Notes: generated by a model from the sequence alone, not told the origin. 64,000 nt of DNA from an uncultured Acidiferrobacteraceae bacterium (GCA_964630665.1 CAZVVN010000006.1:1-64000); one strand, 5' to 3'; counted from the first letter of the stretch, positions 6,448 through 38,869 are shown. Numbers and translations are program-made.

Positions 6448-6477
6448 TCTTAAAGCCCGGTACCAACCGAACCTCGC

Positions 6478-10216: not shown

Positions 10217-10241
10217 CGGATTGCTCTCGAGATGGTGGCCT

Positions 10242-12614
10242 TCAGGCTGGCCTGATCAGCAGATTTCCAACGGAATCCACTTCTCCAGCATGGCCGGGTA
10301 AGACCAGGGTCGTGGAGTCCATTTCGGTTACGATCGCGGGACCCGCAATCCTGTCTCCGGCCCTAAGCACGGCCCGGTCAAGAATGTCAGCGTCGTGCTC
10401 GCGACCTTCAAAGTAGATCTTGGAACGGGCATAGACCGCCCCGGAGGCATCGCCGTTTCCGCCGGCTAGCGCTTCGGCTTCTGCTGCGCTTTCCCTGCCC
10501 TGAACCAGTGCCCGAAGCGTGTAGAGTTCCCGCTCGGTCTCCAGGGCAAAAGTGAACAGTTGCTCGTGCATCGCATCAAAACGTTTCCCGAGCTCAGCAA
10601 GGCCACCGGATTCAAATTCGGCCGGCGTCATCTCGATAGTCAAACGCATACCCTGCCCGGCATAACGAAGATCGACCTGGTAGGCTGTCGACTGATCGCT
10701 TCGCGGAACGCCTTCAGCATCCAGAGTTGCGGCAGCCGAACCCGCCAGTTCAGTCAGGATTCCCAGTACCTGCGTGTCATCAGTTTCAGAGAATCGTCGG
10801 ACGAAGGTCCGAGAAGCCTCGTCGCGGACCCGGGTCGTGGCGTCACCGTAAGCGCACAACACCCCGGGTCCTGGCGGAATAATCACCGGCCAGGAATTCA
10901 TCAGACTGCCCAGGGCATTGGCATGCAGCGGGCCGGCCCCACCAAAGGCGACCAGTGCAAAATCCCTGGGATCAAAGCCCTGTTCCACTGACACCAGCCG
11001 CAGTGCGCCAAACATGTTCTCGTTGACGATGTTGACGATCCCTTCCGCTGCGTCCTGAACCGACAAACCCATGGCCTTGCCGACAGCAGCGACTGCCTGT
11101 TCCGCCTGATCGCGATCGAGCTCCATGTCGCCGCCGAGCTTGGCACTCGACGGCAGGTAGCCCAGGACCACGTTGGCATCGGTCACGGTGGGCTCGGTTC
11201 CACCCATGGCATAGGCAGCCGGCCCCGGCTCAGCACCGGCACTCTGTGGTCCGACGCGCAGGGCCCTCGTCAATTCCGGAACGTAAGCAATCGATCCTCC
11301 CCCCGCACCCACAGTCCGCACATCAATGGAAGACGAGCGCACGGTCACGTCCGCAACCCGGGTCTCGCGTCTTGTCTGAGCTACACCGTTTTGAATCAGG
11401 GCAACGTCTGTCGACGTGCCACCCATATCGAAGGTTAGAAGATCGCTGTAACCGGCCTGCCTGGCCATCCACACTGCACCCGACACGCCACCGGCCGGCC
11501 CGCTCATCAGCAGGTTGACCGGGGTTGCCTTGGCCGCCTCGGCCGACGCCAGGCCACCATCGGAACGCAGAATATGCAACTGCATCCCGCTCATTCGCCG
11601 ATTGAGCTCCGACTCAAGGTTCTCAATGTAGTTCGAGACCACCGGCCTGATGTACGAATTCACGACCGTTGTCTCGGTTCGTTCATACTCGTACATCTCC
11701 GGAACCACTTCCGATGAAATCGAGATCGGGATGCCAGGCAAAATACCCTCGGCCACCTGTCGAACCCGCTGCTCGTGTACACCGTTGGCGTAAGCGTTCA
11801 TCAGCGACACGGTCAGCGCCTCGATCCCGGCGCCGGACAACGCTTTCAGTGCCTCAGCCAGGGCATCCTCATCAAGGGGCCGGACGACCTCCCCTTTTGC
11901 GCCGATCCGCTCGTCTGCTTCAATGGTCAACTCCAGTGGCGCCAGGGGATCGCTCTTATTAAAGATCACCCAGCCACCCAGGCCACCCGGTACATAGGAC
12001 CGGGCGATCTGCAGAACCTGCTTGTAGCCTTTGGTCGTCACCAGCCCAACCCGGGCACCACTGGCTGTCAAAACGGTGTTGGTGGCCACTGTCGTGCCGT
12101 GCATGACATGACTGATATCAGCGAGAGAAACACCGGCCTGCTGACAGACCCGCTCGATGCCACTCAGTACCCCGATCGAAGAGTCTTTCGGGGTAGAGGG
12201 CACCTTGGCGGTAAAACTACGCCCGCTGGACTCCTCGATCAGCAGGATGTCGGTAAAAGTTCCACCAACATCAGCCCCCAGTCGGTAGCCGGCTTGACCG
12301 GCAACGCGCCTGGGCGCCGCAGTGGGCCCTTCCGTCGGAGCGGGTGTCGAAGCCGCCTGGGTACTGGCAGGCCTGCTTCTCGTTGCCGGCAGGTCAGGCG
12401 GTGGATCGTCTTCAGGCCTTTTCCGGGCCACCTCGGGTGAACGCTCCGCCGGTGGATCGTCAGAACGAGTCGTCCGCGGCGGGGCAGGAGGCTTGACCTG
12501 GGCAGGTTCTCCCGCCCGGGTCCGGTCACCCCGGGCCAGTGCAGCAAAGTCATCCTTTGCCTTTTTCAGTTCGGCATCGAACCAGCCCGTCGATTTACGC
12601 GAATCTTTCGTCAT
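10242..12614 (-). CDS. hyuA: Hydantoinase A / oxoprolinase family protein (HyuA-like) with a Pro/Ala-rich N-terminal extension of about 110 aa, cluster 1
   Basis: 790 aa. The core begins GADVGGTFTDILLIEE (Hydantoinase_A N-terminal signature). Before it sits a low-complexity segment (KPPAPPRTTRSDDPPAERSPEVARKRPEDDPPPDLPATRSRPASTQAASTPAPTEGPTAAP). No internal Met is available, so the extension is translated if ATG 12614 is used. Confidence 0.8.
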   Translation of the reverse strand: MTKDSRKSTGWFDAELKKAKDDFAALARGDRTRAGEPAQVKPPAPPRTTRSDDPPAERSPEVARKRPEDDPPPDLPATRSRPASTQAASTPAPTEGPTAAPRRVAGQAGYRLGADVGGTFTDILLIEESSGRSFTAKVPSTPKDSSIGVLSGIERVCQQAGVSLADISHVMHGTTVATNTVLTASGARVGLVTTKGYKQVLQIARSYVPGGLGGWVIFNKSDPLAPLELTIEADERIGAKGEVVRPLDEDALAEALKALSGAGIEALTVSLMNAYANGVHEQRVRQVAEGILPGIPISISSEVVPEMYEYERTETTVVNSYIRPVVSNYIENLESELNRRMSGMQLHILRSDGGLASAEAAKATPVNLLMSGPAGGVSGAVWMARQAGYSDLLTFDMGGTSTDVALIQNGVAQTRRETRVADVTVRSSSIDVRTVGAGGGSIAYVPELTRALRVGPQSAGAEPGPAAYAMGGTEPTVTDANVVLGYLPSSAKLGGDMELDRDQAEQAVAAVGKAMGLSVQDAAEGIVNIVNENMFGALRLVSVEQGFDPRDFALVAFGGAGPLHANALGSLMNSWPVIIPPGPGVLCAYGDATTRVRDEASRTFVRRFSETDDTQVLGILTELAGSAAATLDAEGVPRSDQSTAYQVDLRYAGQGMRLTIEMTPAEFESGGLAELGKRFDAMHEQLFTFALETERELYTLRALVQGRESAAEAEALAGGNGDASGAVYARSKIYFEGREHDADILDRAVLRAGDRIAGPAIVTEMDSTTLVLPGHAGEVDSVGNLLIRPA

Positions 12615-12674
12615 CCTTTAACGAATTTCCATCTGCTTGTTCATCATCCAATACCTAACGCAGACCGCGGCCCA

Positions 12675-13316
12675 TCAGTCCAGCGCCTGCCGCCACGCTC
12701 TGATCTGACCAATTGCCTCATCGGCATCGGTCAGATCACAATAACGGCGCTCAACATCCCGCAGGTTGTCATGGTGCGGGCCTTCATCCTGATCTCCCAC
12801 ACAGTCCTCGGGCACCAGCGTCCGGAACCCCCACTGGAAACAGTCCACGATCGACGCACGGACACAGCCCGATGTCGTGCAGCCCACCACAAAGATTGTA
12901 TCCACTGACTCCTTGTTGAAAAAGGCGGCGGCTGGTGTCTGAAAGAACATCGAGGCCCCCGATTTGCGCATCGCAACGTCGTAATCAGGGTCATAGGTCC
13001 GGGGATCAAGTTGAGTGGGCGTCTCACCTTCGATCAGATCTTCGAGCACCGCTGAGATCTTCCAGTAAGGCATATCCCGCCGGGAGTTGTAACCCGTATA
13101 ACAGGTCGCCACGGGCACACCGCAGGACCTGGCAACTTCGAGTAAGCGAGCAGTATTCTCGATCGCCCGCTGAACCAGGGGTGCACCACCTAGGGAAAAA
13201 ACGGGATCGGTAAAGCCGAGCTGGAAATCAACTACGGCGATCCCGGGCTTGCTACCAAAACCGATCGCCTCGCTGCCGTAGGAGCGTTGGCTGTAAACGT
13301 CCTGCTCGCCATTCAC
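12675..13316 (-). CDS. Isochorismatase-family cysteine hydrolase (N-carbamoylsarcosine amidase-like), cluster 1
   Basis: 213 aa. Motif VVGCTTSGCVRAS (catalytic Cys region of isochorismatase/CSHase-like hydrolases), AVVDFQLGFTDP near the N-terminus, and a DxxxxxN region. It lies directly upstream of hyuA-hyuB on the same strand. Confidence 0.75.
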   Translation of the reverse strand: MNGEQDVYSQRSYGSEAIGFGSKPGIAVVDFQLGFTDPVFSLGGAPLVQRAIENTARLLEVARSCGVPVATCYTGYNSRRDMPYWKISAVLEDLIEGETPTQLDPRTYDPDYDVAMRKSGASMFFQTPAAAFFNKESVDTIFVVGCTTSGCVRASIVDCFQWGFRTLVPEDCVGDQDEGPHHDNLRDVERRYCDLTDADEAIGQIRAWRQALD

Positions 13317-16634: not shown

Positions 16635-18032
16635 GTGTCCCAACCCATCGTCTTTCAGCCCCTACATCGCCAGCTCACGACCCTTAACCGGGGCGAGTGT
16701 TCGGCCCGTGAACTGACTGCTGCCTATCTGGACCGGATTGACCGTTTTGATCCCCAGCTGAATGCCTACGTCACTGTATTCCGGGATGAGGCACTGCAAG
16801 CGGCCGAGAACGCAGACCGGCAACGTGCGGCCGGAAAACCGCTCGGCGCTCTACATGGGATACCCTTCGGACTCAAGGACATCATTGAGGTCCAAGGTCA
16901 ACCGGCCGCGTGGGGCTGTCGTGCCCTGGATGGCCGAGTGTCGCCAGTCTCGGCTACCGTGGTGGATCGCCTCACAAGCGAAGGTGCGATCATCCTGGGT
17001 AAAACCCAGTCCGTGGAATTTGCGTTGGGTGGCTGGGGCACCAACCAGCACTGCGGCACCCCGTGGAACCCGTGGGACCTTAAGACTCACCGCGTACCCG
17101 GAGGCTCGAGCAGCGGTTCTGGCGTTGCTGTTGCGGCCGGTCTCACTTCGGCCGCACTGGGCACCGACACCGGCGGCTCAGTCCGCCTGCCGTCGGCCTT
17201 CTGCGGACTGACAGGGCTGAAGCCGACCTTCGGCCGGGTGTCGAACCATGGCGTGATGCCACTCTCACACTCACTGGATACAGTCGGTCCCATGGCACGC
17301 TGTGTCCAGGATGTCGCTCTGATCTACCAGGTATTGCAGGGCCCAGATTCCAGAGATCGGACAACACTGTATCTGCCCGCGGATGAGCCAATGGCTGGAA
17401 TTCGCGATGGAATCAAGGGCATGTGCCTCGCTGCATTACCGGACGAACAAAGAAAAGAATCGACCGAGCCGGTCAACCTGGCCTATGAAAGGGCGCTGGA
17501 ATGCGCCGGAAAACTGGGCGCAGAGATCGTCATTCGGGGGCTTCCCCATTCCTTCGAGACTTACCGTAACCTCTCTTCCGTGATCGCGAGTGCGGAAGGC
17601 TATGCGCATTGTCATGAATTGATCGACCAGCAAGACCTGCCGATCGGCGATGCGACGCGTGCGCGAATGCTACCCGGAAAGACCTGCTCGGCGAAGGACT
17701 ACCTGGACGCCATGAACCAGATTGAGCGCTGGCGGACAGAATACGAAGAACACATGCGCGGGATTGATGCGCTACTGACCCCGACTGCGATGGTCCCGGC
17801 CATTCCGGTCGAGGAAGTTGACGAAAAGATACTGCCCGCCTACTACACGCGGGCAACAAACGTCCTTGGTCTGTGTGCGCTTGCTCTACCCATCGGTCAG
17901 TCAGGCGAAGGGTTGCCGGTATCGCTGTGCCTGCACGGGCACTCTTTTGCCGAAGCCACGATCCTAAGGATCGGCTCGGCACTCGAACAGGGACTGGGTG
18001 AAAACAGCCGGATCCCTGCAGGACTGGAGTAG
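16635..18032 (+). CDS. Amidase-signature (AS) family amidase
   Basis: 465 aa. [15 protein letters not shown]...GTDTGGSVRLPSAFCGLTGLKPTFGRVS is the amidase signature with the Ser-cisSer-Lys catalytic region. The N-terminal GIPFGLKD fits the family. Confidence 0.8.
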   Translation: MSQPIVFQPLHRQLTTLNRGECSARELTAAYLDRIDRFDPQLNAYVTVFRDEALQAAENADRQRAAGKPLGALHGIPFGLKDIIEVQGQPAAWGCRALDGRVSPVSATVVDRLTSEGAIILGKTQSVEFALGGWGTNQHCGTPWNPWDLKTHRVPGGSSSGSGVAVAAGLTSAALGTDTGGSVRLPSAFCGLTGLKPTFGRVSNHGVMPLSHSLDTVGPMARCVQDVALIYQVLQGPDSRDRTTLYLPADEPMAGIRDGIKGMCLAALPDEQRKESTEPVNLAYERALECAGKLGAEIVIRGLPHSFETYRNLSSVIASAEGYAHCHELIDQQDLPIGDATRARMLPGKTCSAKDYLDAMNQIERWRTEYEEHMRGIDALLTPTAMVPAIPVEEVDEKILPAYYTRATNVLGLCALALPIGQSGEGLPVSLCLHGHSFAEATILRIGSALEQGLGENSRIPAGLE

Positions 18033-18066: not shown

Positions 18067-19005
18067 CTAGAGCAGCTTGAGCATAGCGTCGGCCCCACTG
18101 CTGTCGACCTGGTGACCGGCCTCGACGATAAGGTCCTTGATGACACCGTCGTTGACGATCATGGCATAGCGCCTGGAACGCAGGTTAAGACCCAGAAACC
18201 TCAAGTCTTCGACCATTCCCATTGCCCGGGTGAATTCGCCGTCTCCATCTGCAACCATACTGACCCGACCCTCGACGTTCTGGCTTCGGCCCCAGGCTTG
18301 CATGACAAAAGGATCATTGACAGCCAGACAGATGATGTCGTCGATACCCCGGTCGCGGATCTGATCGGCCTGCCGCACATAGCCCGGCAAGTGCTCTGCA
18401 GAACAGGCCGGTGTATAGGCGCCGGGTACTGCGAACAGAACTATCCTGCGCTGCGAAAAGAGCGCTTTGACGTCCACCGCCTGCGCTGTGTCACTTATAA
18501 GCTGGTAGACCTTCGCGCTCGGAACGGGATCACCGATAGCAAACCGGGCGTCAAGATAACCCAGCAGCGCTTTCATCTCATCACGCAACTGCCCTCTGGA
18601 TGACCATTTGACGAGCTGGCCAGTTGGATTTACCAGGCAAAGACCTGCAGAAACCACCGGTGGAAGACTGCGATCAAGATTCGCCGTAAACGACCCGCCA
18701 GGGTCACTGACCATGTCGAACGGCAGTTGGTACTGCTCAATAAACCTTCTGTTGGTCGCTGCATGATGGCCATTAAGACCGATTATCAGCGTGTTACGCG
18801 AAGTGAATTCCGGATAGTGATCGCGTAACCAATGCCAGTCGTCCGAGAGACCTGCTACGGGGAAATGATCGGTCCTCAGCAGCAACACATGGTGGCCGCG
18901 GTAATCGCTGAGATCCGTCAACACGCCCTGCTGGTTGGGCAACCCGCCAGTCGCTACAGGCGAGGAGCCTTGATTGGAGAACATCCCGCGGGACTCGGCT
19001 CGCAA
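18067..19005 (-). CDS. Tandem redoxin protein: degenerate N-terminal redoxin-like domain plus C-terminal Prx5-type peroxiredoxin
   Basis: The C-terminal half carries FAVPGAYTPACSAEHLPGY, the Prx5/AhpC-TSA peroxidatic Cys motif. The N-terminal half looks redoxin-like but lacks the active-site Cys (HFPVAGLSDD). Confidence 0.6.
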   Translation of the reverse strand: MRAESRGMFSNQGSSPVATGGLPNQQGVLTDLSDYRGHHVLLLRTDHFPVAGLSDDWHWLRDHYPEFTSRNTLIIGLNGHHAATNRRFIEQYQLPFDMVSDPGGSFTANLDRSLPPVVSAGLCLVNPTGQLVKWSSRGQLRDEMKALLGYLDARFAIGDPVPSAKVYQLISDTAQAVDVKALFSQRRIVLFAVPGAYTPACSAEHLPGYVRQADQIRDRGIDDIICLAVNDPFVMQAWGRSQNVEGRVSMVADGDGEFTRAMGMVEDLRFLGLNLRSRRYAMIVNDGVIKDLIVEAGHQVDSSGADAMLKLL

Positions 19006-19010
19006 CTAAA

Positions 19011-19469
19011 TCAGAGCAGTTGGACGCAACGCCTCAAGGCATCGTCTACAGCTTCTTGGTAGGCCGCTTCTTCGGTTTCCCGCTCGTTTCGGTAAACGCC
19101 AGGCACCGGGGGCTCAATCCGGGCCGACCCAAACTGCGCCTTGCGTGAATCCTGCCCGGACAACTCAAGACAGCACAGCACAACGATTTCATCTCCCTCG
19201 CGTCGACGGTCCCGGACCTGGCAGCGCCACTGGTCCGGGAAATGCCGGTCAAGCCAGGCCGACGGACCAAGACTGTCGAGATCATTCTTTTCCGGCCTGA
19301 CCTGCTGCATATCCGCAACCGGTGGTACGCCGGGCGCCGGTTGCCGGTTACGGGCAGACCCGGCGCTGCCGATACCCGATCCATCGTAGAGCGATTCCAG
19401 TTGGCGCCGATTCCCTTCGAGCAGGGTATCGAACGATTGACCGAAGCTTGGCCCGGAGTTAGAACCCAC
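19011..19469 (-). CDS. Small protein with a disordered N-terminus and a C-terminal Rad52-like minidomain, paralogous to the HyuB-fused extensions
   Basis: 152 aa. WLDRHFPDQWRCQV...EIVVLCCLELSG...EAAYQEAVDDALRRCVQLL aligns with the N-extension of HyuB (23164) and the C-extension of HyuB (34549). It sits between the isochorismatase-like and peroxiredoxin genes in a tightly spaced, co-directional string. Confidence 0.5.
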   Translation of the reverse strand: MGSNSGPSFGQSFDTLLEGNRRQLESLYDGSGIGSAGSARNRQPAPGVPPVADMQQVRPEKNDLDSLGPSAWLDRHFPDQWRCQVRDRRREGDEIVVLCCLELSGQDSRKAQFGSARIEPPVPGVYRNERETEEAAYQEAVDDALRRCVQLL

Positions 19470-19480
19470 TTGATCTTCTC

Positions 19481-20224
19481 TTAAGACCTGACAGCCGTCG
19501 GCAGCCTATCCTGCCACCACTGGCGAAAGTCATTATCCGCCACTGCCGCCAACCCACCGGCGTCGACCAGCGCTCCGAGATACTCCAATACGTCCCGCTC
19601 TGACTCGACATCACAATACTTGGCGTCCATGTCAAACAAGTTCGCCTGGTGTGGTCCATCGGCACGGTCACCGACCCCTTCACGTACGACCACAGTCTGA
19701 AAGCCATGCTGCAGAGAATCAACCGCAGAGGCCCGGACACAGCCGCTGGTCGTACAGCCTGTGATGATCACGGTGTCCACGTCGAGTCCGTGGAAGTAGA
19801 CATCCAACTCCGTGCCAAAAAAAGCGCTGGCGAATTTCTTGACAATGACCTGCTCGCCCTCAACCGGTGCGATCCGCTCGTCGATCTCCACCAGCGGCGA
19901 CCCGTTGACCAGAATCGAGAGCGAAGGTACCTTCTTGATGAACACACCAGCATCGCGAAAGTCGGGGTCATAGGCCACCGTGGTGTAAACAACCGGTAGA
20001 CGGCCCCGGCGGAACTCGGCCAGCAGGCGGGATGTGGTGTCCAGTTGCCGTGTGAAGTCCCCACCCAGCGGTGAGTCCGGGTCCGTGAAGCCATTGCTGA
20101 AATCGATGATCAGGAGCGCAGGATTTTGCCCATAGCCCGAGCGACTGGCGAGCCCCTTGGCGAGGTACGACTCGCGGGTGCTGTCCTGCCAGTCATTCAT
20201 GCTGTAAAGAGGGCTGCCTGACAA
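19481..20224 (-). CDS. Isochorismatase-family cysteine hydrolase (N-carbamoylsarcosine amidase-like), cluster 2
   Basis: 247 aa. ITGCTTSGCVRASAVD and ALLIIDFSNGFTDP are close paralog matches to the 12675..13316 product. Confidence 0.75.
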   Translation of the reverse strand: MSGSPLYSMNDWQDSTRESYLAKGLASRSGYGQNPALLIIDFSNGFTDPDSPLGGDFTRQLDTTSRLLAEFRRGRLPVVYTTVAYDPDFRDAGVFIKKVPSLSILVNGSPLVEIDERIAPVEGEQVIVKKFASAFFGTELDVYFHGLDVDTVIITGCTTSGCVRASAVDSLQHGFQTVVVREGVGDRADGPHQANLFDMDAKYCDVESERDVLEYLGALVDAGGLAAVADNDFRQWWQDRLPTAVRS

Positions 20225-20244
20225 TCAGAGAAATCCTGCACACG

Positions 20245-20811
20245 TCAACCAGGCCCGGATGATGACCTGGGCGGTGTCCAGCGATGGCGCCACCCCAGCC
20301 GGAATGACCGGACAACGCGGTGCAGCAGGTAGAAGAGCACAGCCAGCACTACCAGCACGAACACTGACAGCAACCGGCGGCCGAATGCAGCATCAATCAC
20401 AGAGCCGTCGTTCATCAGGTGTCCACTCAGCATCTCGACGGCCTGTATGGTCGCACCGGCACACAGGATGACGGCAGCTAGAACCGCGATCTGCAGCGTA
20501 TCGAAAATCAGATCCTGAGCGTTCGATTCAGTTACCCCCTGGAAAATACTTTTTCGAAATGACTGCCAGTGAGAGACGACGAAACTGATCACGGCGACCA
20601 GCGAGGCAAACCAGAACAATATGTTGGAGAAGTGAATTCTCGGGATATTGTCGATCAAGTACTGTACGAAAGGCTGGTAGAAAAGCAAGAAAATGATCAG
20701 AATCACGATCACAATCAGCCCAATCCACCGGCCTGGGCTGTGCCACCGACTGCTAGGCTCTTCCATCAGGTATAGGGGCCTCTTGCGGTGCCAGGAACGC
20801 AGAACGCTCAT
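20245..20811 (-). CDS. Small polytopic membrane protein (unknown family), paralog of 32788..33264
   Basis: 188 aa with about 4 predicted TM helices. Shared motifs with the 32788 ORF are FYQPF/FFQPF, GATIQAVE/GATLQAVQ and DAAFGRRL/DADFGRRI. Confidence 0.5.
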   Translation of the reverse strand: MSVLRSWHRKRPLYLMEEPSSRWHSPGRWIGLIVIVILIIFLLFYQPFVQYLIDNIPRIHFSNILFWFASLVAVISFVVSHWQSFRKSIFQGVTESNAQDLIFDTLQIAVLAAVILCAGATIQAVEMLSGHLMNDGSVIDAAFGRRLLSVFVLVVLAVLFYLLHRVVRSFRLGWRHRWTPPRSSSGPG

Positions 20812-21080
20812 GGCAGACCTTGAATCACGTCACGTCAGACACTAATGATAGTGCAGCCAGTGGGCAATGCCAAACTCAACTGATGCCAGAGTCTGCGCCA
20901 GCCCCGGAGATAAGACGCTTGCGGACCCGGCTGTAGAACCGTTCAGTGGCGTGTCGGGTCTTCCCGAGGGTAGTGTTCTGTTGTAGATTTGTCCGGTTTC
21001 AACACTAAACAGCGGCAGGCCATACGGACATGGACCAGCGCCGGCAATTGCTGGAATAACAAAGGAGAGATCGGACCCGC

Positions 21081-23150
21081 ATGTCTATCCGCCTCGGCAT
21101 CGACGTTGGAGGGACCTTCACAGACCTGTTGCTTTTTGACGAGGTCAACGAAGTGTTTCATCTTCACAAGACCCCGTCGACACCCGATGACCAGTCGCTG
21201 GCTATCCTGCAGGGCGTTGGCGATCTTCTCGACCAGTCCGGGGTATCTGCCGACCAGGTCCAGTCGCTCCTGCATGGTACGACAGTTGGAACCAACATCG
21301 TTCTCGAGGGGAAAGGGGCCAGAGTCGGCCTGCTGGTCACCGAAAACTTTGAGCAAGTACTGCATCTGGCCAGATCGCAGACACCCGGGCCACTGGCTGG
21401 CTGGATCACCATGCAGAAACCCGATCCCCTGGCTGATCTTGAATTCACCCGGGGAATACCCGAACGGATCAACGCCCGCGGGCAAATTATCCAGCCAATG
21501 GACGAGGCCCATGCCCGACAACTGATCGATGAGTTGGTGAACAAAGGCGCCGAATCGATCACGATTTCGCTGCTGCATGGCTACACAAACCCAACCCATG
21601 AGCGGAAACTTCGTGACATCATAGCGGTCACCTATCCTGATCTGCCCGTCTCGATATCCTCGGACATCCTCCCCGAGTTTCGCGAATACGAACGCACCCT
21701 CGTGACTGTCATGAACGCGTATATACGCCCAGACATGCGCGGATACCTGGCAGGTTTCAAGCAGAAGCTCGAAGCCCTGAATTCCACCCCCAAGCTGCAC
21801 ATTGTCCGCTCGGACAGCGGACTGATGGGTATCGAACATGCGATGGAGTCCCCGGTCTACACGCTGCTGTCAGGCCCCGCCGGCGGTGTCGGCGGGGCAG
21901 CCTACCTGTCCAGACTGACGGGACACCCGGATACGGTCGGCTTCGATATGGGCGGCACATCGACCGACATCTCCCTGATTCGAAACGGGCAGCCCACCGC
22001 ATCCCGGCAGACGTCACTCGGGAGTTACCCGATCAAGATCCCATCGGTCGAAGTCCACAGCGTAGGTGCGGGCGGTGGCTCGATTGCCCACGTCCCGATG
22101 ACCGGAGCTTTACGGGTAGGACCTGAAAGTGCCGGTGCCGTCCCGGGGCCTGCCTGCTACGGCAACGGTGGTACGGCAGCCACGGTGACCGATGCCAACG
22201 TAGTTCTCGGCCGCCTGCCGGAGTACCTGCTCGGCGGGAAAATGCCGCTCGATATCAAGGCAGCAGAAGATGCTGTCGGGGCAGTCGCACGACAACTCGA
22301 TCTGGACGTTTTCGAAGCCGCCCAGGGCATCATCGACATTGTCAATGAGAACATGTTCGGCGCCCTGCGCCTGACCACGGTTCAAAAAGGACTGGACCCG
22401 CGGAACTTCGGCTTGGTGGCGTTCGGTGGCGCTGGCCCGTTGCATGCCAATGCCCTGGCGATTCTCGGGCGGTGCTATCCCGTCATTGTGCCCCCTACGC
22501 CAGGGGTGTTGTCAGCGCTCGGTTTTCTCCAAGCCAGTGTCCGGAACGAAGCCAACCAGAGCATCATCCGGAACCTCTCCGATGTCGCCCCGGAGGAGTT
22601 GGGCAACATCGCATCCCGCCTGACTGATAACATCAGAAACTGGCTCTCTGGAGAAGGCATTGCTGTCAACGACCAGTCCTTGCAGCACGAGATCGACATG
22701 CGCTACCTCCGACAGGGCTATGAACTGTCGCTGCCATTTCAGCCAGAGAAAATCACCCAGGCAACACTGCAGGATCTGGGTGAGCGCTTCAATACCCTGC
22801 ACGAGCAACACTACGGGTTCAAGGTGAACTCGGTCGTGGAGATCGTCAACCTGCGCGTGATCGGCTTGGGTAAGGTTGCCGAGATGAATTCGCCAAAAGC
22901 ACGGCCTGGCAGTGCTGATCCAGCGGCTGCCTTGGCTGGGGAGCGACAGGTTTTCTTCGATGGCGCATCATTTGCTACAAATATCTACGAAAGAAACGGG
23001 TTGACAGCGGGTAATGAGATCACCGGCCCGGCCATCATCAGCCAGACCGATGCGACTACCATGATCCACCCGGATCACGTTGCTACAGTCGATGAGCACC
23101 TGAATATTCTTATCCAGCCCAGGATCCCGGCTACCGAGACCAGACACTAG
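21081..23150 (+). CDS. hyuA: Hydantoinase A / oxoprolinase family protein (HyuA-like), cluster 2
   Basis: 689 aa beginning MSIRLGIDVGGTFTDLLLFDE. It is preceded by a Shine-Dalgarno-like AAAGGAGAGA. Hydantoinase_A core motifs run throughout. Confidence 0.85.
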   Translation: MSIRLGIDVGGTFTDLLLFDEVNEVFHLHKTPSTPDDQSLAILQGVGDLLDQSGVSADQVQSLLHGTTVGTNIVLEGKGARVGLLVTENFEQVLHLARSQTPGPLAGWITMQKPDPLADLEFTRGIPERINARGQIIQPMDEAHARQLIDELVNKGAESITISLLHGYTNPTHERKLRDIIAVTYPDLPVSISSDILPEFREYERTLVTVMNAYIRPDMRGYLAGFKQKLEALNSTPKLHIVRSDSGLMGIEHAMESPVYTLLSGPAGGVGGAAYLSRLTGHPDTVGFDMGGTSTDISLIRNGQPTASRQTSLGSYPIKIPSVEVHSVGAGGGSIAHVPMTGALRVGPESAGAVPGPACYGNGGTAATVTDANVVLGRLPEYLLGGKMPLDIKAAEDAVGAVARQLDLDVFEAAQGIIDIVNENMFGALRLTTVQKGLDPRNFGLVAFGGAGPLHANALAILGRCYPVIVPPTPGVLSALGFLQASVRNEANQSIIRNLSDVAPEELGNIASRLTDNIRNWLSGEGIAVNDQSLQHEIDMRYLRQGYELSLPFQPEKITQATLQDLGERFNTLHEQHYGFKVNSVVEIVNLRVIGLGKVAEMNSPKARPGSADPAAALAGERQVFFDGASFATNIYERNGLTAGNEITGPAIISQTDATTMIHPDHVATVDEHLNILIQPRIPATETRH

Positions 23151-23163
23151 CGAGGAGAGATCG

Positions 23164-25479
23164 GTGAGTAGCAAATCAGCATCACTGGAAGAACTGGTCA
23201 GGGCCAACAAGGCGCAGTTCGACCGGATCTTTTCGACACAGATGGGAACGCCGGATGCACAACCGGGTGACACTGCCGAACCGTCTGAAACCCCGGCTTC
23301 AGTGGCAGAAGACGGTCAGGCTCCCCTGGACAGCAGTATCAGAAAGGTCCTGACCGAACGTTACGGCGACGGCTGGTCGCAGGAGATTGTCGAGCACAGT
23401 ATCGACGGTGACGAGGTCCGGGTCGTGTGCAGACTCGAAGCCGATGGATTGGCCAGTACGCAGCATGGCAACGCCAGGAACAGCGGCAACGTCGGGATCG
23501 CTCTGCAGCGTGCCAGCGACAATGCTCTGGCCCGCTGTTACCGTGAACTGGACCCAGACGGCACCCGAGCAACTGACTCATTTAAGGCGCCTGCGGCTTC
23601 AACATCTTCCCTGCCCCAGGATCTCCTGCCTACCGCTGCTGTCCGTTTAGCGGCCAGCCAGCGACAACGACCGGGGCAGCAGATCGATACAGTCACCCTG
23701 GATCTGATCGAAAACGCTCTCAGGAACGCGCGCCATGAAATGGACGCGGTACTGTTCCGCTCTGCCATGTCCCCAGTCATACGCGAACAGCACGACGAAT
23801 TCCCGATGATCACCGATCGACGGGGGCGAATGATTGTCGGTCAGTTCGGTTCCTACGTCGCCCAGATGCTCCGTGAGAAGAAGTTCGACCTCTCACCGGG
23901 AGACGTGATTCTTCAAAGTGATCCCTACCAGTGCGGCGGTGCGATCAGTCACATCAACGACTGGCTGGTCCTCGTTCCGGTGTTCCACCAGGAGGCTCTG
24001 GTCGGCTTCAGTTCCATGTTCGGACACATGATGGATGTTGGCGGACCAGTCGCCGGCAGTATGCCTACTGGCGCAACCACAATCTATGGGGAAGGCATCC
24101 GAATCCCGCCCATCAAGATCTTTGAGAAAGGCAAAGTCAACCAGGCAGCGCTGGATCTGATCCTCAACAATACCCGAACACCTCAGATGAACTACAGCGA
24201 CCTGATGGCAATCATCGCTGGAAGCCGTGCAGGTGAGAAACGGGTGGTGGAAATCTGTGACCGGTTTGGGCGAGAGACTTATTTTCAGGCCTGCGAGGCC
24301 CTCCTTGACCGTACCCAACAGGCCATGAAACGACTGATCGTCCAAAACCTGCCCACGGAACCCCAGTCATTCGAAGATTATGTCGACGATGACGGCTGTG
24401 GCAACGGCCCGTTCAAAATGAAACTCACACTCTGGCGGGAGGGTGAGCACGCTTTCTTCGACTGGACCGGTACCTCTGACCAGGCACCCGGCCCCATCAA
24501 CTTCTACCTGCACGAAGGTATGTTCAAGATGTTTATCGGGGTCTACATGATCATGGTCTTCGACCCACAGATCCTCTTCAATGACGGGTTCTATGATCTG
24601 GTCCATGTCACCATGCCCACAGGATCCGTACTGCAGCCCGAGTTTCCTGCAGCACTGGGCTGCAGGACCCACGCCCTGGCACGCCAATTCGATGTCCTGG
24701 GCGGTGCACTGAGTCACAAAGCCCCTGAGCTGGCCACTGCAGCGGGCTACGGCTCCAGCCCGCATTTTCTCTACTCTGGCATTGACCGGCAGGGTACCCC
24801 GTTTCAGTTGATGGAGATCCTGTATGGCGGTATTCCCGGCAGACCTGTTGGCGACGGCCTGGATGGGCATTCGTGGTGGCCGCTTTTTGAAAACATTCCG
24901 ACCGAATACCTTGAGATTTATTTCCCTCTGGTGGTCGAAAGCTACGCCAGCATCCGCGACTCCGGCGGCGCTGGCCAGCACCGCGGGGGCAACGGTGTCG
25001 AAAAGATCTACCACATTCTGGAGCCTGGGGAGATCTCGATCCATGACGACCGGCACCAAAGCCAGCCCTGGGGTATTCTCGGAGGCAAACCCGGTGCCTG
25101 TTCAGAGAAATGGATCATCCAGAAAGAGGCAGGGCGTAAAGCACTGTCCTCAAAAGTCGACAATGTGCAGGTCTATCCTGGTGATAGAATCATTTTCAGG
25201 ACCGCCGGCGCCGGCGGCTGGGGTGACCCCCTGGAACGGGAGGTGGGCGCAGTCAGGAACGACGTCGCGCGCAATCTGGTCGGTGTCGATACCGCGCGAC
25301 AGGCGTACGGTGTCATCATCAACGAAAACACCCTCGAGGCTGATGTCAGGCAGACCGAGGAGTTGAGGCAGAGAATGAGGAACAACCGATCCCCGCTGGC
25401 TGTCTTTGACTTTGGCAGCAGGATTGTCGGGGTTTCCCACAGGAATGGGGTCGAATCTGGTGAGCAGGCCCCGGTTTGA
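23164..25479 (+). CDS. hyuB: Hydantoinase B family protein (HyuB-like) with a roughly 170-aa N-terminal extension containing a Rad52-like minidomain, cluster 2
   Basis: 771 aa. The Hydantoinase_B core starts near residue 175 (TLDLIENALRNARHEMDAVLFRSAMSPVIREQHDEFPMI). The N-extension contains LTERYGDGWSQEIVEHSIDGDEVRVVCRLEADGL...ALQRASDNALARCYREL. It follows hyuA after a 13-bp gap. Confidence 0.85.
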   Translation: MSSKSASLEELVRANKAQFDRIFSTQMGTPDAQPGDTAEPSETPASVAEDGQAPLDSSIRKVLTERYGDGWSQEIVEHSIDGDEVRVVCRLEADGLASTQHGNARNSGNVGIALQRASDNALARCYRELDPDGTRATDSFKAPAASTSSLPQDLLPTAAVRLAASQRQRPGQQIDTVTLDLIENALRNARHEMDAVLFRSAMSPVIREQHDEFPMITDRRGRMIVGQFGSYVAQMLREKKFDLSPGDVILQSDPYQCGGAISHINDWLVLVPVFHQEALVGFSSMFGHMMDVGGPVAGSMPTGATTIYGEGIRIPPIKIFEKGKVNQAALDLILNNTRTPQMNYSDLMAIIAGSRAGEKRVVEICDRFGRETYFQACEALLDRTQQAMKRLIVQNLPTEPQSFEDYVDDDGCGNGPFKMKLTLWREGEHAFFDWTGTSDQAPGPINFYLHEGMFKMFIGVYMIMVFDPQILFNDGFYDLVHVTMPTGSVLQPEFPAALGCRTHALARQFDVLGGALSHKAPELATAAGYGSSPHFLYSGIDRQGTPFQLMEILYGGIPGRPVGDGLDGHSWWPLFENIPTEYLEIYFPLVVESYASIRDSGGAGQHRGGNGVEKIYHILEPGEISIHDDRHQSQPWGILGGKPGACSEKWIIQKEAGRKALSSKVDNVQVYPGDRIIFRTAGAGGWGDPLEREVGAVRNDVARNLVGVDTARQAYGVIINENTLEADVRQTEELRQRMRNNRSPLAVFDFGSRIVGVSHRNGVESGEQAPV

Positions 25480-25509: not shown

Positions 25510-28095
25510 TTGAGAACGGGGATTTCACCCATGTCAATTGAAACGTTGATCACACTGGTGATCCTGGCCGTCATTGCGGTCGCGATCTTCTACATCATCT
25601 CTGTCTGGGTCTACAAAAGGGCCCCGGCCAACATGGGTTTTATACGGACGGGGTTCGGCGGAACCAAGGTCTGCCTGGGCCAGGGGGCGATGGTGCTGCC
25701 GGTCTTCCATGAAGTCAGCTGGGTATCACTGGAGACCATAAAGCTGATTGTCAGCCGCTCCCGTGACCAGGCGATACTGACCTCAGACAAGATCCGTGTC
25801 GACGTGGTAGCCGAACTCTACACCCATGTCGGACACACGGAAGAGGACTTATTGACCGCCAGCCGTAGCCTCGGAGAGAAGACCTTCGACGCCGACAACG
25901 TCCGGAACCTTCTGGAGGCAAAGATCATCAGCGCCTTGCGCAGCTATGCAGCGACCAAGACACTGAACGAGTTGCACGAAAACCGAGACACCTTCGCAAA
26001 AGACATCAAGAGCCAGGTCCGCGACAGTTTCCAGGCCAATGGCCTGAACCTCGAAGAGGTCACCATCGTGACAATGGAGCAAACCGGCAAGGAGTATTTC
26101 AAGACCGATAACGTGTTCGATGCCGAAGGGCTCAAGATCATCACGGCGATCACCTCCAAGGCCAAACGCGAAGTTCACGACACCGAGAAGAAAGCCAGTG
26201 TCGCTATTCGTCAGAAAGAACTCGATACCCAACTCGAGCTGCTCGAGATCGAACGCCAGGAGGCCTTTGCCAAGGCCAATCAGGATAAAGCAGTGTCCAA
26301 TGAGCAGGCCCTGCGGGTTGGTGAAAAACAGCGTTACGTCCTTGAGCAGAAAATGGCGGTCGAACAGAAAGAAATCGAGAACGAACAGACGCTGGAGCAA
26401 CTTCGGACCGACCGGGATGTCGCGATCATCGAAGAGGCTCGTAAGCGTGAAATCGCCGAGATTGAGAAAACCCGGATCACCGAACAACAAAGGCGGGACC
26501 GGGAGATCCATCTAATCTCCAAGGCCAAGGAGGAGGAACTCGCCAATATCCAGCGGAACCTGGATCTGGAAAAAGCCGAGAAGGATCGGCAAATCGAACT
26601 TCACGTAAAATCAAAAGAAGAACAACTCGCCCAGATCCAGCGTGAACAGGCACTGGAGATTGCAGAGAAGGACAAGCAAATCCAGTCCATCGCAAACGAC
26701 CGGCAACGTCAGGAGGCTGAAATTCTCCGACAGACTGCGATCACGACCAGCGAGGAACAGGCCCGTGAAGAAAGGGTCAAGGCCAGTGAAATTGCCGAAG
26801 TCGCGATTCAACAGCAGAAACTTGCGAGCCGTCTGTCCCTGCTGGATGTGGACAAGAATGACGCTTTTGCAACAGCGACCCAGGAAAAAGAAATTGCCGA
26901 AGAGCAGGCTAGGATCCTGACCCAGAAGCAGTTGTTTTTGCTCGAGCAGAAGTGGCAGGTGGAGCAGGAAGAAATCCACAAGGAACTCTCTGTCGAACAG
27001 GCGCAGATAGACAAGGAAGCACAGGTCCTGCTGGAATCACAGAAAAAAGAAACGGCCGAAGTGCAACGCTCACTGGCCCGACAATCCGAGGAACGCAATC
27101 GGGAAATCGCCCTGGCGGCCAAGGAAATGGAGCTCGAGCAGGCCGAGGCGCGTCGCCTTGAGGCCACCGCGGCCCGGCAGAAAGCCGAGCACGAGGCCGA
27201 ATCGGTGCGGCACGTCGCGGATGCTGAGCGGCAACGTATCATTGACCTGATAGAGGCAGAGAACAGCGCCGAGACCCGGCGGGTGGAGGAAGAAAACAAG
27301 GCGCAGATCTCTAGAATGCATATGCTCGCCCAGGCCGAAGCCCGCAAAGAATCAGCACAGCGTGAGGCGGATGCCACCCTGACGAGAGCCAGGGCCTCCA
27401 GTGAGGCGCAGCAAATCAATGCGCTCGGTATTGAAAAAGAAGCTGCCGCCAAAGGCCGCGCCGAGATGGAGATCGAGCAACTGCGGGTTGACAACACCCA
27501 GCGCATGCTCGAGGCGGAGGCCAGTGGTATCGAGGCCAAAGCCGACGCGCTCAAGAAGTACAACCTGGCGGCGACTTTCCTGGAGCTTTCCAAGCTGCAT
27601 ATCGAGGCCGAACGTGATGTGCGCAGCGATCAGGCCAAAGCCATGGGCAATGCCCTGCAGGGTGCCCAGATCCGCATGTACGGCGGCAGCGACGATGGGA
27701 CCATAGACAACATTCGGAGCCTGTTTACCTCGGGCTTCGGCGTCGGTGAGGCCCTAGAAGGTCTTGCCCAGTCGATGCCGGAGGGCCTGCGGCAACGCTT
27801 TGCAGAAAACGGTATCCGTGGCCTGTTCGGTGCCCCCGGAGGTGCCGGGCGCTTCCAGCACGCGGTGACCGAAATTGGAGAGCTTCTGACGCAGACTTTG
27901 AAAACAAAGAAAAGCCGGGAAGAAACAGATTTCAGGGACGCCATGCTGCAGCTCGAAGAGGCCGCGGGATCGGATAAGTCCAAGTTAGAAGCAGTTTCGC
28001 TGCTGACTGATTTCAACCAGGCCGGGGTGTTCGATGAAGTGTCGTTCGAGACCGTCTGGAGCCTATTGCTGGCAACCTCGAAAAGCGTCAACTAA
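25510..28095 (+). CDS. Flotillin / SPFH (band 7) family protein with N-terminal TM helix and a very long coiled-coil region (861 aa)
   Basis: It has an N-terminal hydrophobic helix (IETLITLVILAVIAVAIFYII). The SPFH domain follows (GFIRTGFGGTKV...IVTMEQTGKEYF). About 450 aa of heptad-like E/K/Q/R/A-rich repeats come next, then a flotillin-like C-terminus. The gene sits 30 bp after hyuB. Confidence 0.8.
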   Translation: MRTGISPMSIETLITLVILAVIAVAIFYIISVWVYKRAPANMGFIRTGFGGTKVCLGQGAMVLPVFHEVSWVSLETIKLIVSRSRDQAILTSDKIRVDVVAELYTHVGHTEEDLLTASRSLGEKTFDADNVRNLLEAKIISALRSYAATKTLNELHENRDTFAKDIKSQVRDSFQANGLNLEEVTIVTMEQTGKEYFKTDNVFDAEGLKIITAITSKAKREVHDTEKKASVAIRQKELDTQLELLEIERQEAFAKANQDKAVSNEQALRVGEKQRYVLEQKMAVEQKEIENEQTLEQLRTDRDVAIIEEARKREIAEIEKTRITEQQRRDREIHLISKAKEEELANIQRNLDLEKAEKDRQIELHVKSKEEQLAQIQREQALEIAEKDKQIQSIANDRQRQEAEILRQTAITTSEEQAREERVKASEIAEVAIQQQKLASRLSLLDVDKNDAFATATQEKEIAEEQARILTQKQLFLLEQKWQVEQEEIHKELSVEQAQIDKEAQVLLESQKKETAEVQRSLARQSEERNREIALAAKEMELEQAEARRLEATAARQKAEHEAESVRHVADAERQRIIDLIEAENSAETRRVEEENKAQISRMHMLAQAEARKESAQREADATLTRARASSEAQQINALGIEKEAAAKGRAEMEIEQLRVDNTQRMLEAEASGIEAKADALKKYNLAATFLELSKLHIEAERDVRSDQAKAMGNALQGAQIRMYGGSDDGTIDNIRSLFTSGFGVGEALEGLAQSMPEGLRQRFAENGIRGLFGAPGGAGRFQHAVTEIGELLTQTLKTKKSREETDFRDAMLQLEEAAGSDKSKLEAVSLLTDFNQAGVFDEVSFETVWSLLLATSKSVN

Positions 28096-34548: not shown

Positions 34549-36711
34549 TCAGTTATCTCGCAGAACTTTCTGCGCACATTTGAACAGGCTCTGGTCGGCG
34601 GCAGCCTGAAGGCGTGCGCCGATCGATGATGCGCTGGGGTTCTCATCGGTACCGGTTTCGCTGGCATAGGTGCCGTTGGCCCGCAACTCACCACGCACTT
34701 CGGCAAAACCTCGGCGAGAGGAGTAATAAACGACGTCAAAACTCCAGGCCTCACCAAACGCCTCGCGCAGGGATTCGATCGTTGAATCACGGCTCTGGCT
34801 TACACCAGAAACCGCTGTTTCAACGGCGGTCGACCTTCGGCCGGGTGCAGTCCGCTGGGCTGTTTCAGAGGTCGCAAGCCGTGATTCTCTGAGCGCAACC
34901 TCTTCGGGGCTGCGATCCCGGCTTTCACTCAGGGTCCCAGCCGGCTGACTGCGCATCTGGGCGCGGAGCGATTCGGTGGCAGTGTCATTGACCCTTTCTG
35001 CAGCCAGATCAACAACCACACCATAGGCCGCCTTAGCGTGTTCCACCGTACAGAAATCGTCCAGTACATCTTCTAGAACCTGCGACGCTGGACGTTCCAG
35101 TGGGTCGCCGTATCCGCCGCCACACGGTGCGTAGAACGCGTGAACCTCACCGGCTTTGATCTTCAGGCCGGAGAACTTGGCCGGCATCTGTTGAATGTCA
35201 TCCGGATCATCGACGTTGTAGATCTCGACCTTGCCGGTTGTTCCCGGCCAACCGCCGAATATGCCCCAAGGCACGTCATGGTGCCGTTCGTTTTCGTGGG
35301 TGATGAAACCGTCGGTGAGCACGCGCTGGGACTTGACCACACCGATACCACCGCGAAAGCGCCCGGCTCCGGGCAGCACATCGTCGCGAAGCTCATAACG
35401 GTCACAGATCATCGGCAAGTGCATCGCGAGGTCTTCCAGCGGATTGTTACGCGTATTGGCCATCAGGTTATCTATGCTGTCCGGGCCATCGGAGAGCGGC
35501 CGACCTCCATAGGCGCCCTCGTTGACTTCCAGAAAGACCCAGTAATCACCCGATGGCCTGACTCCCGAATAAGAGACAAAAGACAGCGACGCGGAACTGC
35601 CAGCGATGATCTGATCGGGTAGAACCGGCGCCAGAGCCTTATAAATGAGGTCGATCACCCGGTTGACCTGGGTAAACCTTGCTTCTGCGGCAGCAGGAAA
35701 CTCAGGGTTGTAGATCGAACCTTTGGGCGCGATCACCTTGATCGGTCGGAACGAACCTTCGTTGGACGGCACCTGGATCTCCGAGGTTTCGGCATCCAGC
35801 AGCAAAGAGCGGATCGCGCAGAAACATGCGACTTTAGTCGAACCTTCAAATGGCACGTTAAATCCGGTCTCGACCTGGTCTGATGAACCGGTCAGGTCGA
35901 TCTCAATCGAATCGCCTTGAACCCGCACGCAGACCTTGATGGGCAAGCGTACGTCGCGGTTTTTGCCGTCATCATCCAGATAACCTTCCGCACGGTATTC
36001 ACCATCCGGAATCTTGTCGATCTTCTGCCTCAGTATCCGCTCGGTGTAGTCCATCAGCTGGCCGGTGGCTGCCAGGATCGTGTCCTTCCCATAACGCTCC
36101 ATGAGTTCGACAAAGCGCCGCACACCCAGCTTGGCAGAGGCGATCTGAGCCTCTATATCACTTTGCAACTGTTTGGCAGCGCGGCTGTTTCGTCCCAGAA
36201 ACTCCCACAGGGCGTCATTGCGGACACCCCTTTCATAGAGCTTGGTACCGGCAAACAGCATGCCCTCGGCATAGACATCCGGTATATCGATGATCAACCC
36301 CGGGGTGGCCGCTCCGATATCTAGATGATGCGCGGTGTTAGCTGCAAAACCGACCAGCTGGTCCTGATAAAAACAGGGAATCACAATGGCAAGGTCAGGC
36401 GAGTGACTGGCTCCGAAGTAGGGGTGGTTGTGAAGCACCACGTCGCCCTCGTTCCAGACACCACCTTGCAGTGACTCCTGGATGCCGTACAGGTAACCAG
36501 GCAGAGAACCAATGTGCAACGGTGTCGACTCCGATTCACACAAAGTGTTGAAATCAGTATCAAACAGGCCGGCACCGAGATCCTGCGATTCGCGAATGAT
36601 CGACGAGAAGGACATCCGGTAAAGGATATGGCCCATCTCCTCGGCGATGGTATCCAGCGCGCCGCTGATGACCTGTAAAGTGATCGGATCTAGTTCGTCA
36701 GCTGCCATCAC
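34549..36711 (-). CDS. hyuB: Hydantoinase B family protein (HyuB-like) with a roughly 130-aa C-terminal extension containing a Rad52-like minidomain, cluster 3
   Basis: 720 aa. The Hydantoinase_B core is marked by DPITLQVISGALDTIAEEMGHILYRMSFSSIIRESQDLGAGLF... and GGGYGDPLERP. The C-terminal tail contains LREAFGEAWSFDVVYYSSRRGFAEVRGELRANG...LQAAADQSLFKCAQKVL. Confidence 0.85.
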   Translation of the reverse strand: MMAADELDPITLQVISGALDTIAEEMGHILYRMSFSSIIRESQDLGAGLFDTDFNTLCESESTPLHIGSLPGYLYGIQESLQGGVWNEGDVVLHNHPYFGASHSPDLAIVIPCFYQDQLVGFAANTAHHLDIGAATPGLIIDIPDVYAEGMLFAGTKLYERGVRNDALWEFLGRNSRAAKQLQSDIEAQIASAKLGVRRFVELMERYGKDTILAATGQLMDYTERILRQKIDKIPDGEYRAEGYLDDDGKNRDVRLPIKVCVRVQGDSIEIDLTGSSDQVETGFNVPFEGSTKVACFCAIRSLLLDAETSEIQVPSNEGSFRPIKVIAPKGSIYNPEFPAAAEARFTQVNRVIDLIYKALAPVLPDQIIAGSSASLSFVSYSGVRPSGDYWVFLEVNEGAYGGRPLSDGPDSIDNLMANTRNNPLEDLAMHLPMICDRYELRDDVLPGAGRFRGGIGVVKSQRVLTDGFITHENERHHDVPWGIFGGWPGTTGKVEIYNVDDPDDIQQMPAKFSGLKIKAGEVHAFYAPCGGGYGDPLERPASQVLEDVLDDFCTVEHAKAAYGVVVDLAAERVNDTATESLRAQMRSQPAGTLSESRDRSPEEVALRESRLATSETAQRTAPGRRSTAVETAVSGVSQSRDSTIESLREAFGEAWSFDVVYYSSRRGFAEVRGELRANGTYASETGTDENPSASSIGARLQAAADQSLFKCAQKVLRDN

Positions 36712-36732
36712 TTATATGCCCATGACGGGTAT

Positions 36733-38808: not shown

Positions 38809-38869
38809 GATCGCGGTCCATTGGCCGGTCGCATCTGACGTTCAGTTTCCCCGATCTCATGGTCTGGTG

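Follow-up and report, generated by a model that had tools for sequence, protein, structure and literature searches.

A predicted Rad52-like core, free-standing and fused to HyuB, in hydantoinase gene clusters of uncultured bacteria

What does a small protein of no named family do between the genes for an amidohydrolase and a peroxiredoxin? The question is raised by a 152-aa open reading frame, hereafter ORF152, in the 64,000-nucleotide stretch of DNA analysed here (the window; GCA_964630665.1 CAZVVN010000006.1:1-64000, from an uncultured Acidiferrobacteraceae bacterium), which holds three clusters of hyuA/hyuB and isochorismatase genes (cluster 1, 8324-13316; cluster 2, 19481-25479; cluster 3, 34549-39565). 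A first-pass annotation had placed the frame at 19011-19469 and had described it as the third copy of a small module otherwise found fused to HyuB. We confirmed the frame, which lies on the minus strand and opens with GTG, together with the protein sequence quoted for it and its position between two co-directional genes, the CSHase-like gene and the peroxiredoxin gene (Table 1). The gaps of 6-12 bp given for this arrangement stood on the upstream side, where 11 nt separate the stop codon from ORF152; on the peroxiredoxin side the distance depends on the start chosen, being 5 nt with a TTG start at 19005 and ~26 nt with an ATG start at 18984, the latter giving the better fit to the homologue in locus L001.

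Table 1 Features of ORF152, its module copies and its neighbours, in window coordinates.
Feature	Coordinates	Strand	Remarks
ORF152, free-standing module gene	19011..19469	-	GTG start, 152 aa; N-helix, linker and predicted Rad52-like core
N-terminal helix motif of ORF152, residues 10-28, GQSFDTLLEGNRRQLESLY	19386..19442	-	Conservation; AF2 helix 10-28
Variable linker of ORF152, residues 29-60	19290..19385	-	Predicted disordered; pLDDT <50 at residues 31-56 (AF2)
Predicted minimal Rad52-superfamily core of ORF152, residues 61-152	19014..19289	-	Helix, three strands, long crossing helix
Isochorismatase-family amidohydrolase, CSHase-like	19481..20224	-	Pfam PF00857; likely start M9 (20200)
Amidohydrolase C-terminal tail motif ADNDFRQWW	19514..19540	-	Unique in the window
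Membrane protein, 188 aa, heading the same-strand string	20245..20811	-	Conserved beside HyuA of cluster 2 in Gamma and Alpha loci
HyuA of cluster 2, partner of the module-bearing HyuB	21081..23150	+	Pfam Hydant_A_N, Hydantoinase_A, Hydant_A_C; syntenic in 33 loci
HyuB of cluster 2, 771 aa, with N-terminal module	23164..25479	+	Pfam Hydantoinase_B at residues 175-689
N-terminal helix motif of HyuB of cluster 2, KSASLEELVRANKAQFDRIFSTQ	23173..23241	+	N-helix HMM E 3e-7; AF2 helix 8-26
Fused, predicted Rad52-like core, N-extension of HyuB of cluster 2, residues 58-130	23335..23553	+	tblastn, HMM, AF2
Fused, predicted Rad52-like core, C-terminus of HyuB of cluster 3, residues 643-720	34552..34785	-	HMM E 9e-6
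Two-domain peroxiredoxin, downstream of ORF152	18067..19005	-	Pfam Redoxin and AhpC-TSA, two stretches

The ORF152 gene and the module copies of the window

ORF152 is a real and widely conserved gene. A word-indexed search returned 110 clusters of homologues, 40-95% identical, from marine metagenomes and metagenome-assembled genomes (MAGs), and with an exhaustive profile search the family grew to 374 clusters (50% identity), of which 133 scored E <=1e-10; all family sequences come from uncultured organisms (metagenomes, MAGs). Full-length close homologues measure 146-152 aa, a few matches being shorter fragments, and most of the 374 clusters consist of free-standing proteins of 140-200 aa with the layout of ORF152. 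Two doubts had been raised about the gene, namely that it might lack conservation in related genomes or might lie inside a longer frameshifted gene. The homologue clusters dispel the first, and since the close relatives hold a constant length, ORF152 is not part of a longer, frameshifted gene. A chance reading frame was rejected on the same clusters and on third-position codon bias, with 18, 12 and 45 differences at codon positions 1, 2 and 3 relative to an 83%-identical homologue (L019). The exact protein occurs in NCBI and Logan assemblies, where its relatives are labelled only 'hypothetical protein'. Searches of Pfam, NCBIfam, PHROGs and PDB sequences gave no match for ORF152 or other family members, and none of the libraries searched has a name for the family. 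A promoter-like site (20873-20845) lies upstream of the 188-aa membrane-protein gene that heads the same-strand string, and no terminator-like site was found inside the string; both count as weak evidence.

AF2 models, which here are monomers, divide ORF152 into an N-terminal helix, a linker and a folded core of 80-90 aa. The N-terminus had been described as Gly/Pro-rich and disordered; this holds for residues ~29-60 only, which are variable and predicted to be disordered, whereas residues 10-28 form a conserved, predicted helix. The helix follows the consensus SFDxLxxGNRxQLxxLY, in which F13, D14, L16, N20, Q23 and L27 are invariant among close homologues and the invariant Asn falls at a heptad-like position, while the linker is unconserved and differs in length between aligned homologues. 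Residues 61-152 are modelled at a pLDDT of 84-89. Strictly conserved core positions in the family are W81, G114, A140, C148, L73 and V97; conservation is highest at hydrophobic or small residues of the core, with no polar pocket. We considered and rejected a redox role for the cysteines, which look structural because at C99 the family alternates between Cys and Gly, and because genuine Rad52_Rad22 relatives keep C148 too.

The module occurs three times in the window. Of its 319 ORFs, an HMM built only from copies outside the window matched exactly three: ORF152 at E 7e-34, residues 60-129 of HyuB of cluster 2 at E 6e-25, and residues 646-715 of HyuB of cluster 3 at E 9e-6. The strongest of the remaining ORFs reached E 0.69; the description of ORF152 as the third copy is therefore correct. 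Cluster 2 does carry the module twice, once free and once fused to HyuB, as the annotation had it: ORF152 and the N-extension of HyuB find each other by tblastn at E 5e-6 in both directions over ~140 residues, N-helix included, and an HMM of the N-helix matched only these two proteins in the window. The N-extension is modelled with the same succession of elements (helix 8-26, disorder, helix 59-67, three strands and helix 110-129; pLDDT 86-92), and a further disordered linker of ~40 residues joins the module to the enzyme core. At the other end of the enzyme, the C-terminal module of HyuB of cluster 3 is conserved in loci L015 and L067.

In an unrooted tree the free copies formed one clean clade, and the C-terminally fused copies and the Rad52_Rad22 proteins formed separate clades. 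Copy types are 20-34% identical to one another, roughly the distance of each from genuine Rad52_Rad22 cores, and on this ground the paralogy is old. By these sequence comparisons, the free copies are an old clade of their own and not recent duplicates of the fused ones. Two further candidates were set aside. An apparent isochorismatase-module fusion (P0205, 347 aa) reads like out-of-frame read-through of adjacent genes, and a motif at the N-terminus of HyuA of cluster 1 matched the N-helix by a loose regular expression and found no support from the N-helix HMM. The latter is a separate, strictly conserved motif, DSRKxTxWFDAxLxKAKDDF (12528-12605, minus strand), which in this 790-aa protein is followed by a highly variable Pro/Arg-rich linker of ~85 residues before the enzyme core.

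Relationship to the Rad52 superfamily

The Rad52 superfamily is seen as a group of DNA annealing proteins. The first-pass annotation had proposed profile and structure searches for the module, and these point to this superfamily through Foldseek, hhalign and custom profiles, although Pfam made no assignment. The top six Foldseek matches of the ORF152 domain in the PDB were all human RAD52, and among viral models the top matches were phage Rad52/59/22, Sak3, RAD52-like and Erf proteins. Neither ORF152 nor five other family members matched any Pfam family, even at E <=1, and the gathering threshold of Rad52_Rad22 (PF04098) was not reached. The tail of the exhaustive family profile search includes proteins that do pass it, and hhalign aligned the family with these proteins at 99.0% probability (E 5e-18, 86 columns). 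A reverse Rad52_Rad22 profile matched 132 of 142 family representatives, ORF152 at 28.8 bits, and a Rad52_Rad22-type profile reached yeast and human RAD52 in the PDB (E 5e-6 and 6e-5). Judged by profile homology and by Foldseek on a predicted model, the ORF152 domain is a minimal Rad52-superfamily core, homologous to Rad52. The double-stranded-RNA-binding domain (dsRBD) and the N-domain of uS5 scored below Rad52 structurally, and profile homology favours Rad52; ORF152 had no Pfam match to the dsRBD, which was not its best structural neighbour.

The superfamily is built on a five-element fold, in which the sheet and the helix that crosses it are most conserved and set the curvature of multimers, the second helix is universal, and the beta-hairpin and first helix are variable (PMC9870868). 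ORF152 is predicted to retain elements i and ii, the three-stranded sheet and the long crossing helix, as well as element iii, since its helix 61-76 aligns with the RAD52 segment HRVINLANEMFG by way of the bacterial Rad52_Rad22 profile. Elements iv and v, the beta-hairpin and first helix, are missing in ORF152 and the disordered linker stands in their place. In keeping with this layout, the hhalign match begins at template column 29, past the IKxR...Y hairpin segment, and the segment of human RAD52 that bears R55 and Y65 has no counterpart in ORF152. The hairpin has been described as critical for DNA binding and called essential for annealing (PMC11783212), yet some true Rad52-family annealases also have an altered hairpin or none (PMC9870868).

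Residue mapping extends this picture to the rest of the binding surface, with W81, R146, R147 and Q150 of ORF152 corresponding to W84, K152, R153 and R156 of human RAD52. Across 141 family representatives, Ala occupies the K152 position in 52% and a basic residue in 14%; Lys or Arg stands at the R153 position in 56%; and at the R156 position Glu accounts for 28%, Ala for 23% and Lys or Arg for 20%. Because the R55/Y65 segment is absent and the equivalents of K152 and R156 are unconserved, canonical single-stranded DNA binding looks lost in the ORF152 family. Residual affinity for nucleic acid is possible, since the R153 equivalent is so often basic and ORF152 itself retains Arg-Arg at the K152/R153 positions. 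Net charge and pI do not discriminate for DNA binding, as the module domains are acidic and so are several genuine phage relatives.

Compared with the Rad52/Rad22 annealing proteins (RAD52, yeast Rad52, Mgm101, Sak/Sak3/Erf; PF04098), ORF152 thus shares the core helix, sheet and crossing helix, and it is ~30% identical to bacterial Rad52_Rad22 cores. Unlike them, it is about half their size and stops where the Rad52 cap helices start. A second difference concerns gene context, for the module occurs either free, paired with an amidohydrolase gene, or fused to HyuB, and never with recombination genes.

Partner enzymes and possible roles of the module

To place the module in its context, we gathered 65 loci with the free gene from scans of species genomes (13 loci) and of metagenomes (52 loci) and from an exact-protein look-up, which had supplied the first locus. 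They derive from Gammaproteobacteria (including Acidiferrobacteraceae MAGs), Alphaproteobacteria (Rhodospirillaceae) and SAR324. Wherever at least 700 nt of upstream sequence was available (59 loci, not deduplicated, with proteins 27-92% identical to ORF152), the same type of isochorismatase gene lay directly upstream on the same strand (59 of 59), at a median gap of ~14 nt. A divergent hyuA-hyuB pair is also present in 33 loci, and every complete HyuB of the cluster-2 type that we found (33 loci; 753-785 aa) bears an N-terminal module. Some Alpha-type loci run in the order amidohydrolase, module, HyuA of the cluster-3 type, HyuB of the cluster-3 type with a C-terminal module, and membrane protein. 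Recombination, exonuclease, SSB and phage genes were absent from the ~65 loci, in which the neighbours are transport and catabolic genes. The peroxiredoxin gene is found in Gamma-type loci and is absent from Alpha-type loci; the two halves of the protein are PrxQ-like (residues ~22-111) and Prx5/Redoxin-like (157-309).

The upstream gene had been called CSHase-like, and this is borne out, its closest solved structure being an N-carbamoylsarcosine amidohydrolase (26st_A, E 6e-63; 1nba, E 9e-39) that covers residues 8-209. For HyuB of cluster 2 the closest solved structure is N-methylhydantoinase 7hk5_A (E 2e-66), which matches from residue 177 onward. N-methylhydantoinase and N-carbamoylsarcosine amidohydrolase catalyse consecutive steps in the N-methylhydantoin branch of creatinine breakdown (PMC12623156). 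With enzyme identities taken from the closest solved relatives, the module gene therefore adjoins, or is fused to, what are predicted to be two consecutive enzymes of hydantoin/creatinine-type breakdown. Outside the region matched by solved CSHases, the amidohydrolase ends in a Gly-rich linker and a tail motif, [DE][DEN]FxxWW, that recurs in nearly all lineages (Gamma, Alpha and SAR324 loci) and that the other two isochorismatases of the window lack.

In enzymes of the HyuAB type, a dimer of HyuB forms the core of an (alpha-beta)2 particle (PMC8453981), and each particle would therefore display two modules. As a small, putatively non-catalytic polypeptide linked to a HyuA/HyuB-type ATP-dependent enzyme, ORF152 resembles the gamma subunits of acetone and acetophenone carboxylase (PMC8453981), and we found no similarity of sequence or fold between it and the known small subunits of the HyuAB family (acetone carboxylase gamma type).

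We propose that ORF152 is a non-catalytic, self-associating tether for the hydantoinase and the hydrolase that follows it, a reading that we consider as apt to be right as wrong. ORF152 would be an accessory protein, made of an amphipathic, coiled-coil-like N-helix, a flexible linker and a minimal Rad52 core, and would serve as the dedicated partner of the CSHase-like amidohydrolase, its paralogues being fused by long disordered linkers to the HyuB of N-methylhydantoinase-like, ATP-dependent ring-opening enzymes. The Rad52-like cores would self-associate through the sheet-plus-helix surface, the one that drives multimerisation in real Rad52-family proteins, and free and HyuB-fused copies would mix, with the N-helices and the amidohydrolase's FxxWW tail as docking elements. 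An enzyme that makes an N-carbamoyl intermediate would in this way be tethered to the enzyme that consumes it. The analysis establishes the gene itself, its fold and homology to Rad52, the three copies, the unvarying pairing of genes and the identities of the enzymes; we infer self-association, mixed assemblies, binding of the motifs to partners and a benefit from channelling. Assembly in particular is argued by analogy from the retained core (PMC9870868). The hetero-oligomeric ring or scaffold suggested in the first-pass annotation would gain an unexpected rationale here, as the module is homologous to that part of ring- and filament-forming annealases which sets multimer curvature.

We favour the tether because long disordered linkers flank the fused module, the FxxWW tail is conserved, the pairing with the amidohydrolase gene is invariable, and the enzymes to which the module is paired or fused are consecutive. 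Known tethering and targeting systems such as microcompartment encapsulation peptides and cohesin-dockerin scaffolds likewise use short, conserved helices or tail motifs that are carried on flexible linkers and attached to consecutive enzymes of a pathway. Unlike in those systems, the hub domain here would have a Rad52-type fold, and among those window ORFs that were scanned with Pfam there were neither shell genes (microcompartment, encapsulin) nor scaffoldin genes. Several observations count against the tether: three loci (L010, L011, L014) have the amidohydrolase-module pair and no HyuAB within 10 kb, three (L011, L056, L057) lack FxxWW despite a module gene of normal appearance downstream, and more than half of the family has a basic residue at the R153 position, ORF152 with its Arg-Arg included.

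More tentatively, and with the chances somewhat against it, a Rad52-derived domain that no longer handles DNA could assemble into rings or filaments in which free and enzyme-fused subunits mix and serve as a multi-enzyme hub in marine Proteobacteria. The hub would hold N-methylhydantoinase-like HyuAB and the CSHase-like amidohydrolase and might be associated with membranes or flotillin. Were this true, it would be a new kind of bacterial enzyme scaffold and, to our knowledge, the first non-nucleic-acid role for the Rad52 annealase fold. The fold itself is known; what is new is that it is truncated, has lost determinants of DNA binding and occurs in an obligate metabolic context, and we found no paper joining 'Rad52' and 'hydantoinase'. 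A DNA-annealing fold may thus have been re-used to hold metabolic enzymes together. A Rad52 branch conserved across bacterial classes, without the DNA-binding parts and tied through gene order and fusion to two consecutive catabolic enzymes, would show re-use of the fold for protein organisation and would offer a concrete case of how an ATP-spending ring-opening enzyme might be coupled to the next hydrolase, which bears on how marine bacteria scavenge nitrogen from compounds of the creatinine or hydantoin type. The analysis also gives a name and a fold to a family annotated just as 'hypothetical protein'.

Three other roles have to be weighed. ORF152 could be an accessory or regulatory subunit of the CSHase-like amidohydrolase, a stabiliser, a modulator of activity or a sensor of a small molecule or intermediate, working as a monomer or small complex with no multivalent scaffold, and the fused copies would serve HyuB likewise. 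Strict pairing and close spacing with the amidohydrolase gene suit this role, as do a conserved charged hairpin (RRREGDE) and the surface formed by K110, Q112 and F113. We nevertheless think it unlikely, given that the homology is to Rad52 and to no ligand-binding family, that the top conserved positions are those of a hydrophobic or small core without a polar pocket, and that disordered linkers of 40-60 residues at either end of HyuB suit tethering better than an allosteric domain. A somewhat less probable role would have the protein retain binding to single-stranded nucleic acid and so anchor the enzymes to DNA or RNA, regulate the operon mRNA or act on hydantoin-type base lesions. True homology to single-stranded DNA annealases speaks for this, together with the basic residues at the K152/R153 positions already described, the conserved basic RRR hairpin and the peroxiredoxin gene that adjoins in Gamma-type loci. 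It is opposed by the missing R55/Y65 hairpin, by the mostly Ala equivalent of K152 and mostly Glu or Ala equivalent of R156, by the absence of recombination, exonuclease, SSB and phage genes from the loci, and by the HyuB-fused copies, which lack the RRR hairpin.

The least probable of these roles, though one that could coexist with a scaffold, is that of a localisation adaptor, in which the N-helix, the core or both would dock the enzymes on the conserved membrane proteins or on the large flotillin-like SPFH protein encoded beside HyuB and so bring catabolism close to the ABC importer. A Band_7/SPFH coiled-coil protein of 854-861 aa is encoded beside the module-bearing HyuB in Gamma/Alpha-type loci at 61-98% identity, conserved and unannotated membrane proteins flank clusters 2 and 3, and the N-helix, amphipathic and carried on a long linker, is similar to a targeting peptide. 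Set against this, the SPFH gene is missing from several loci that keep the amidohydrolase-module pair, and shell genes of the microcompartment or encapsulin type did not appear among the window ORFs scanned.

Further genes of the window and related loci

In the window, the SPFH/Band_7 gene (25510-28095, plus strand) directly follows the module-bearing hyuB and encodes an 861-aa, membrane-anchored protein with a very long coiled coil rich in Glu, Ala, Gln and Lys; the strongest AT skew of the window falls in this gene region (0.336 for 26001-28000). A second, ordinary flotillin gene lies at 59179-60789. The 188-aa membrane protein, which is multi-pass and encoded divergently from hyuA of cluster 2, has no Pfam or NCBIfam family, and neither does a 347-aa multi-pass membrane protein encoded after hyuB of cluster 3 (33433-34476, minus strand), which is a conserved part of the system.

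Near-identical copies of the whole region (91-100% protein identity) occur in three loci (L004, L017, L018), namely in the marine MAG 'Proteobacteria bacterium SP340' (PBDS01000026.1) and on two metagenome contigs. The window probably stems from that population or a sister one. In Alpha-type loci the membrane-protein gene and the amidohydrolase gene stand 3-4 kb apart, and the space between them contains a gene whose product carries a GTPase P-loop at its N-terminus, VTGFLGSGKTTLL (L008, 6576-7673, and L015, 6596-7624, both on the minus strand), and looks, by its motif, like a metal chaperone of the COG0523 type. One Rhodospirillaceae MAG (L009) encodes a 1156-aa NACHT/STAND NTPase with HEAT repeats (3007-6477, plus strand), a few kb upstream of its amidohydrolase-module pair.

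Elsewhere in the window, an Lhr-type helicase gene (1990-6447, plus strand, 1485 aa) adjoins a 2'-5' RNA ligase/LigT-like gene (6478-7071, minus strand), both unrelated to ORF152. Further amidases are encoded at 16635-18032 and 52811-55153, the latter in fusion with an ABC ATPase. Just beyond cluster 3, an amidase-signature gene and an AtzH-like gene (40853-42570, plus strand) overlap by 4 nt and resemble the AtzE/AtzH pair of cyanuric-acid breakdown.
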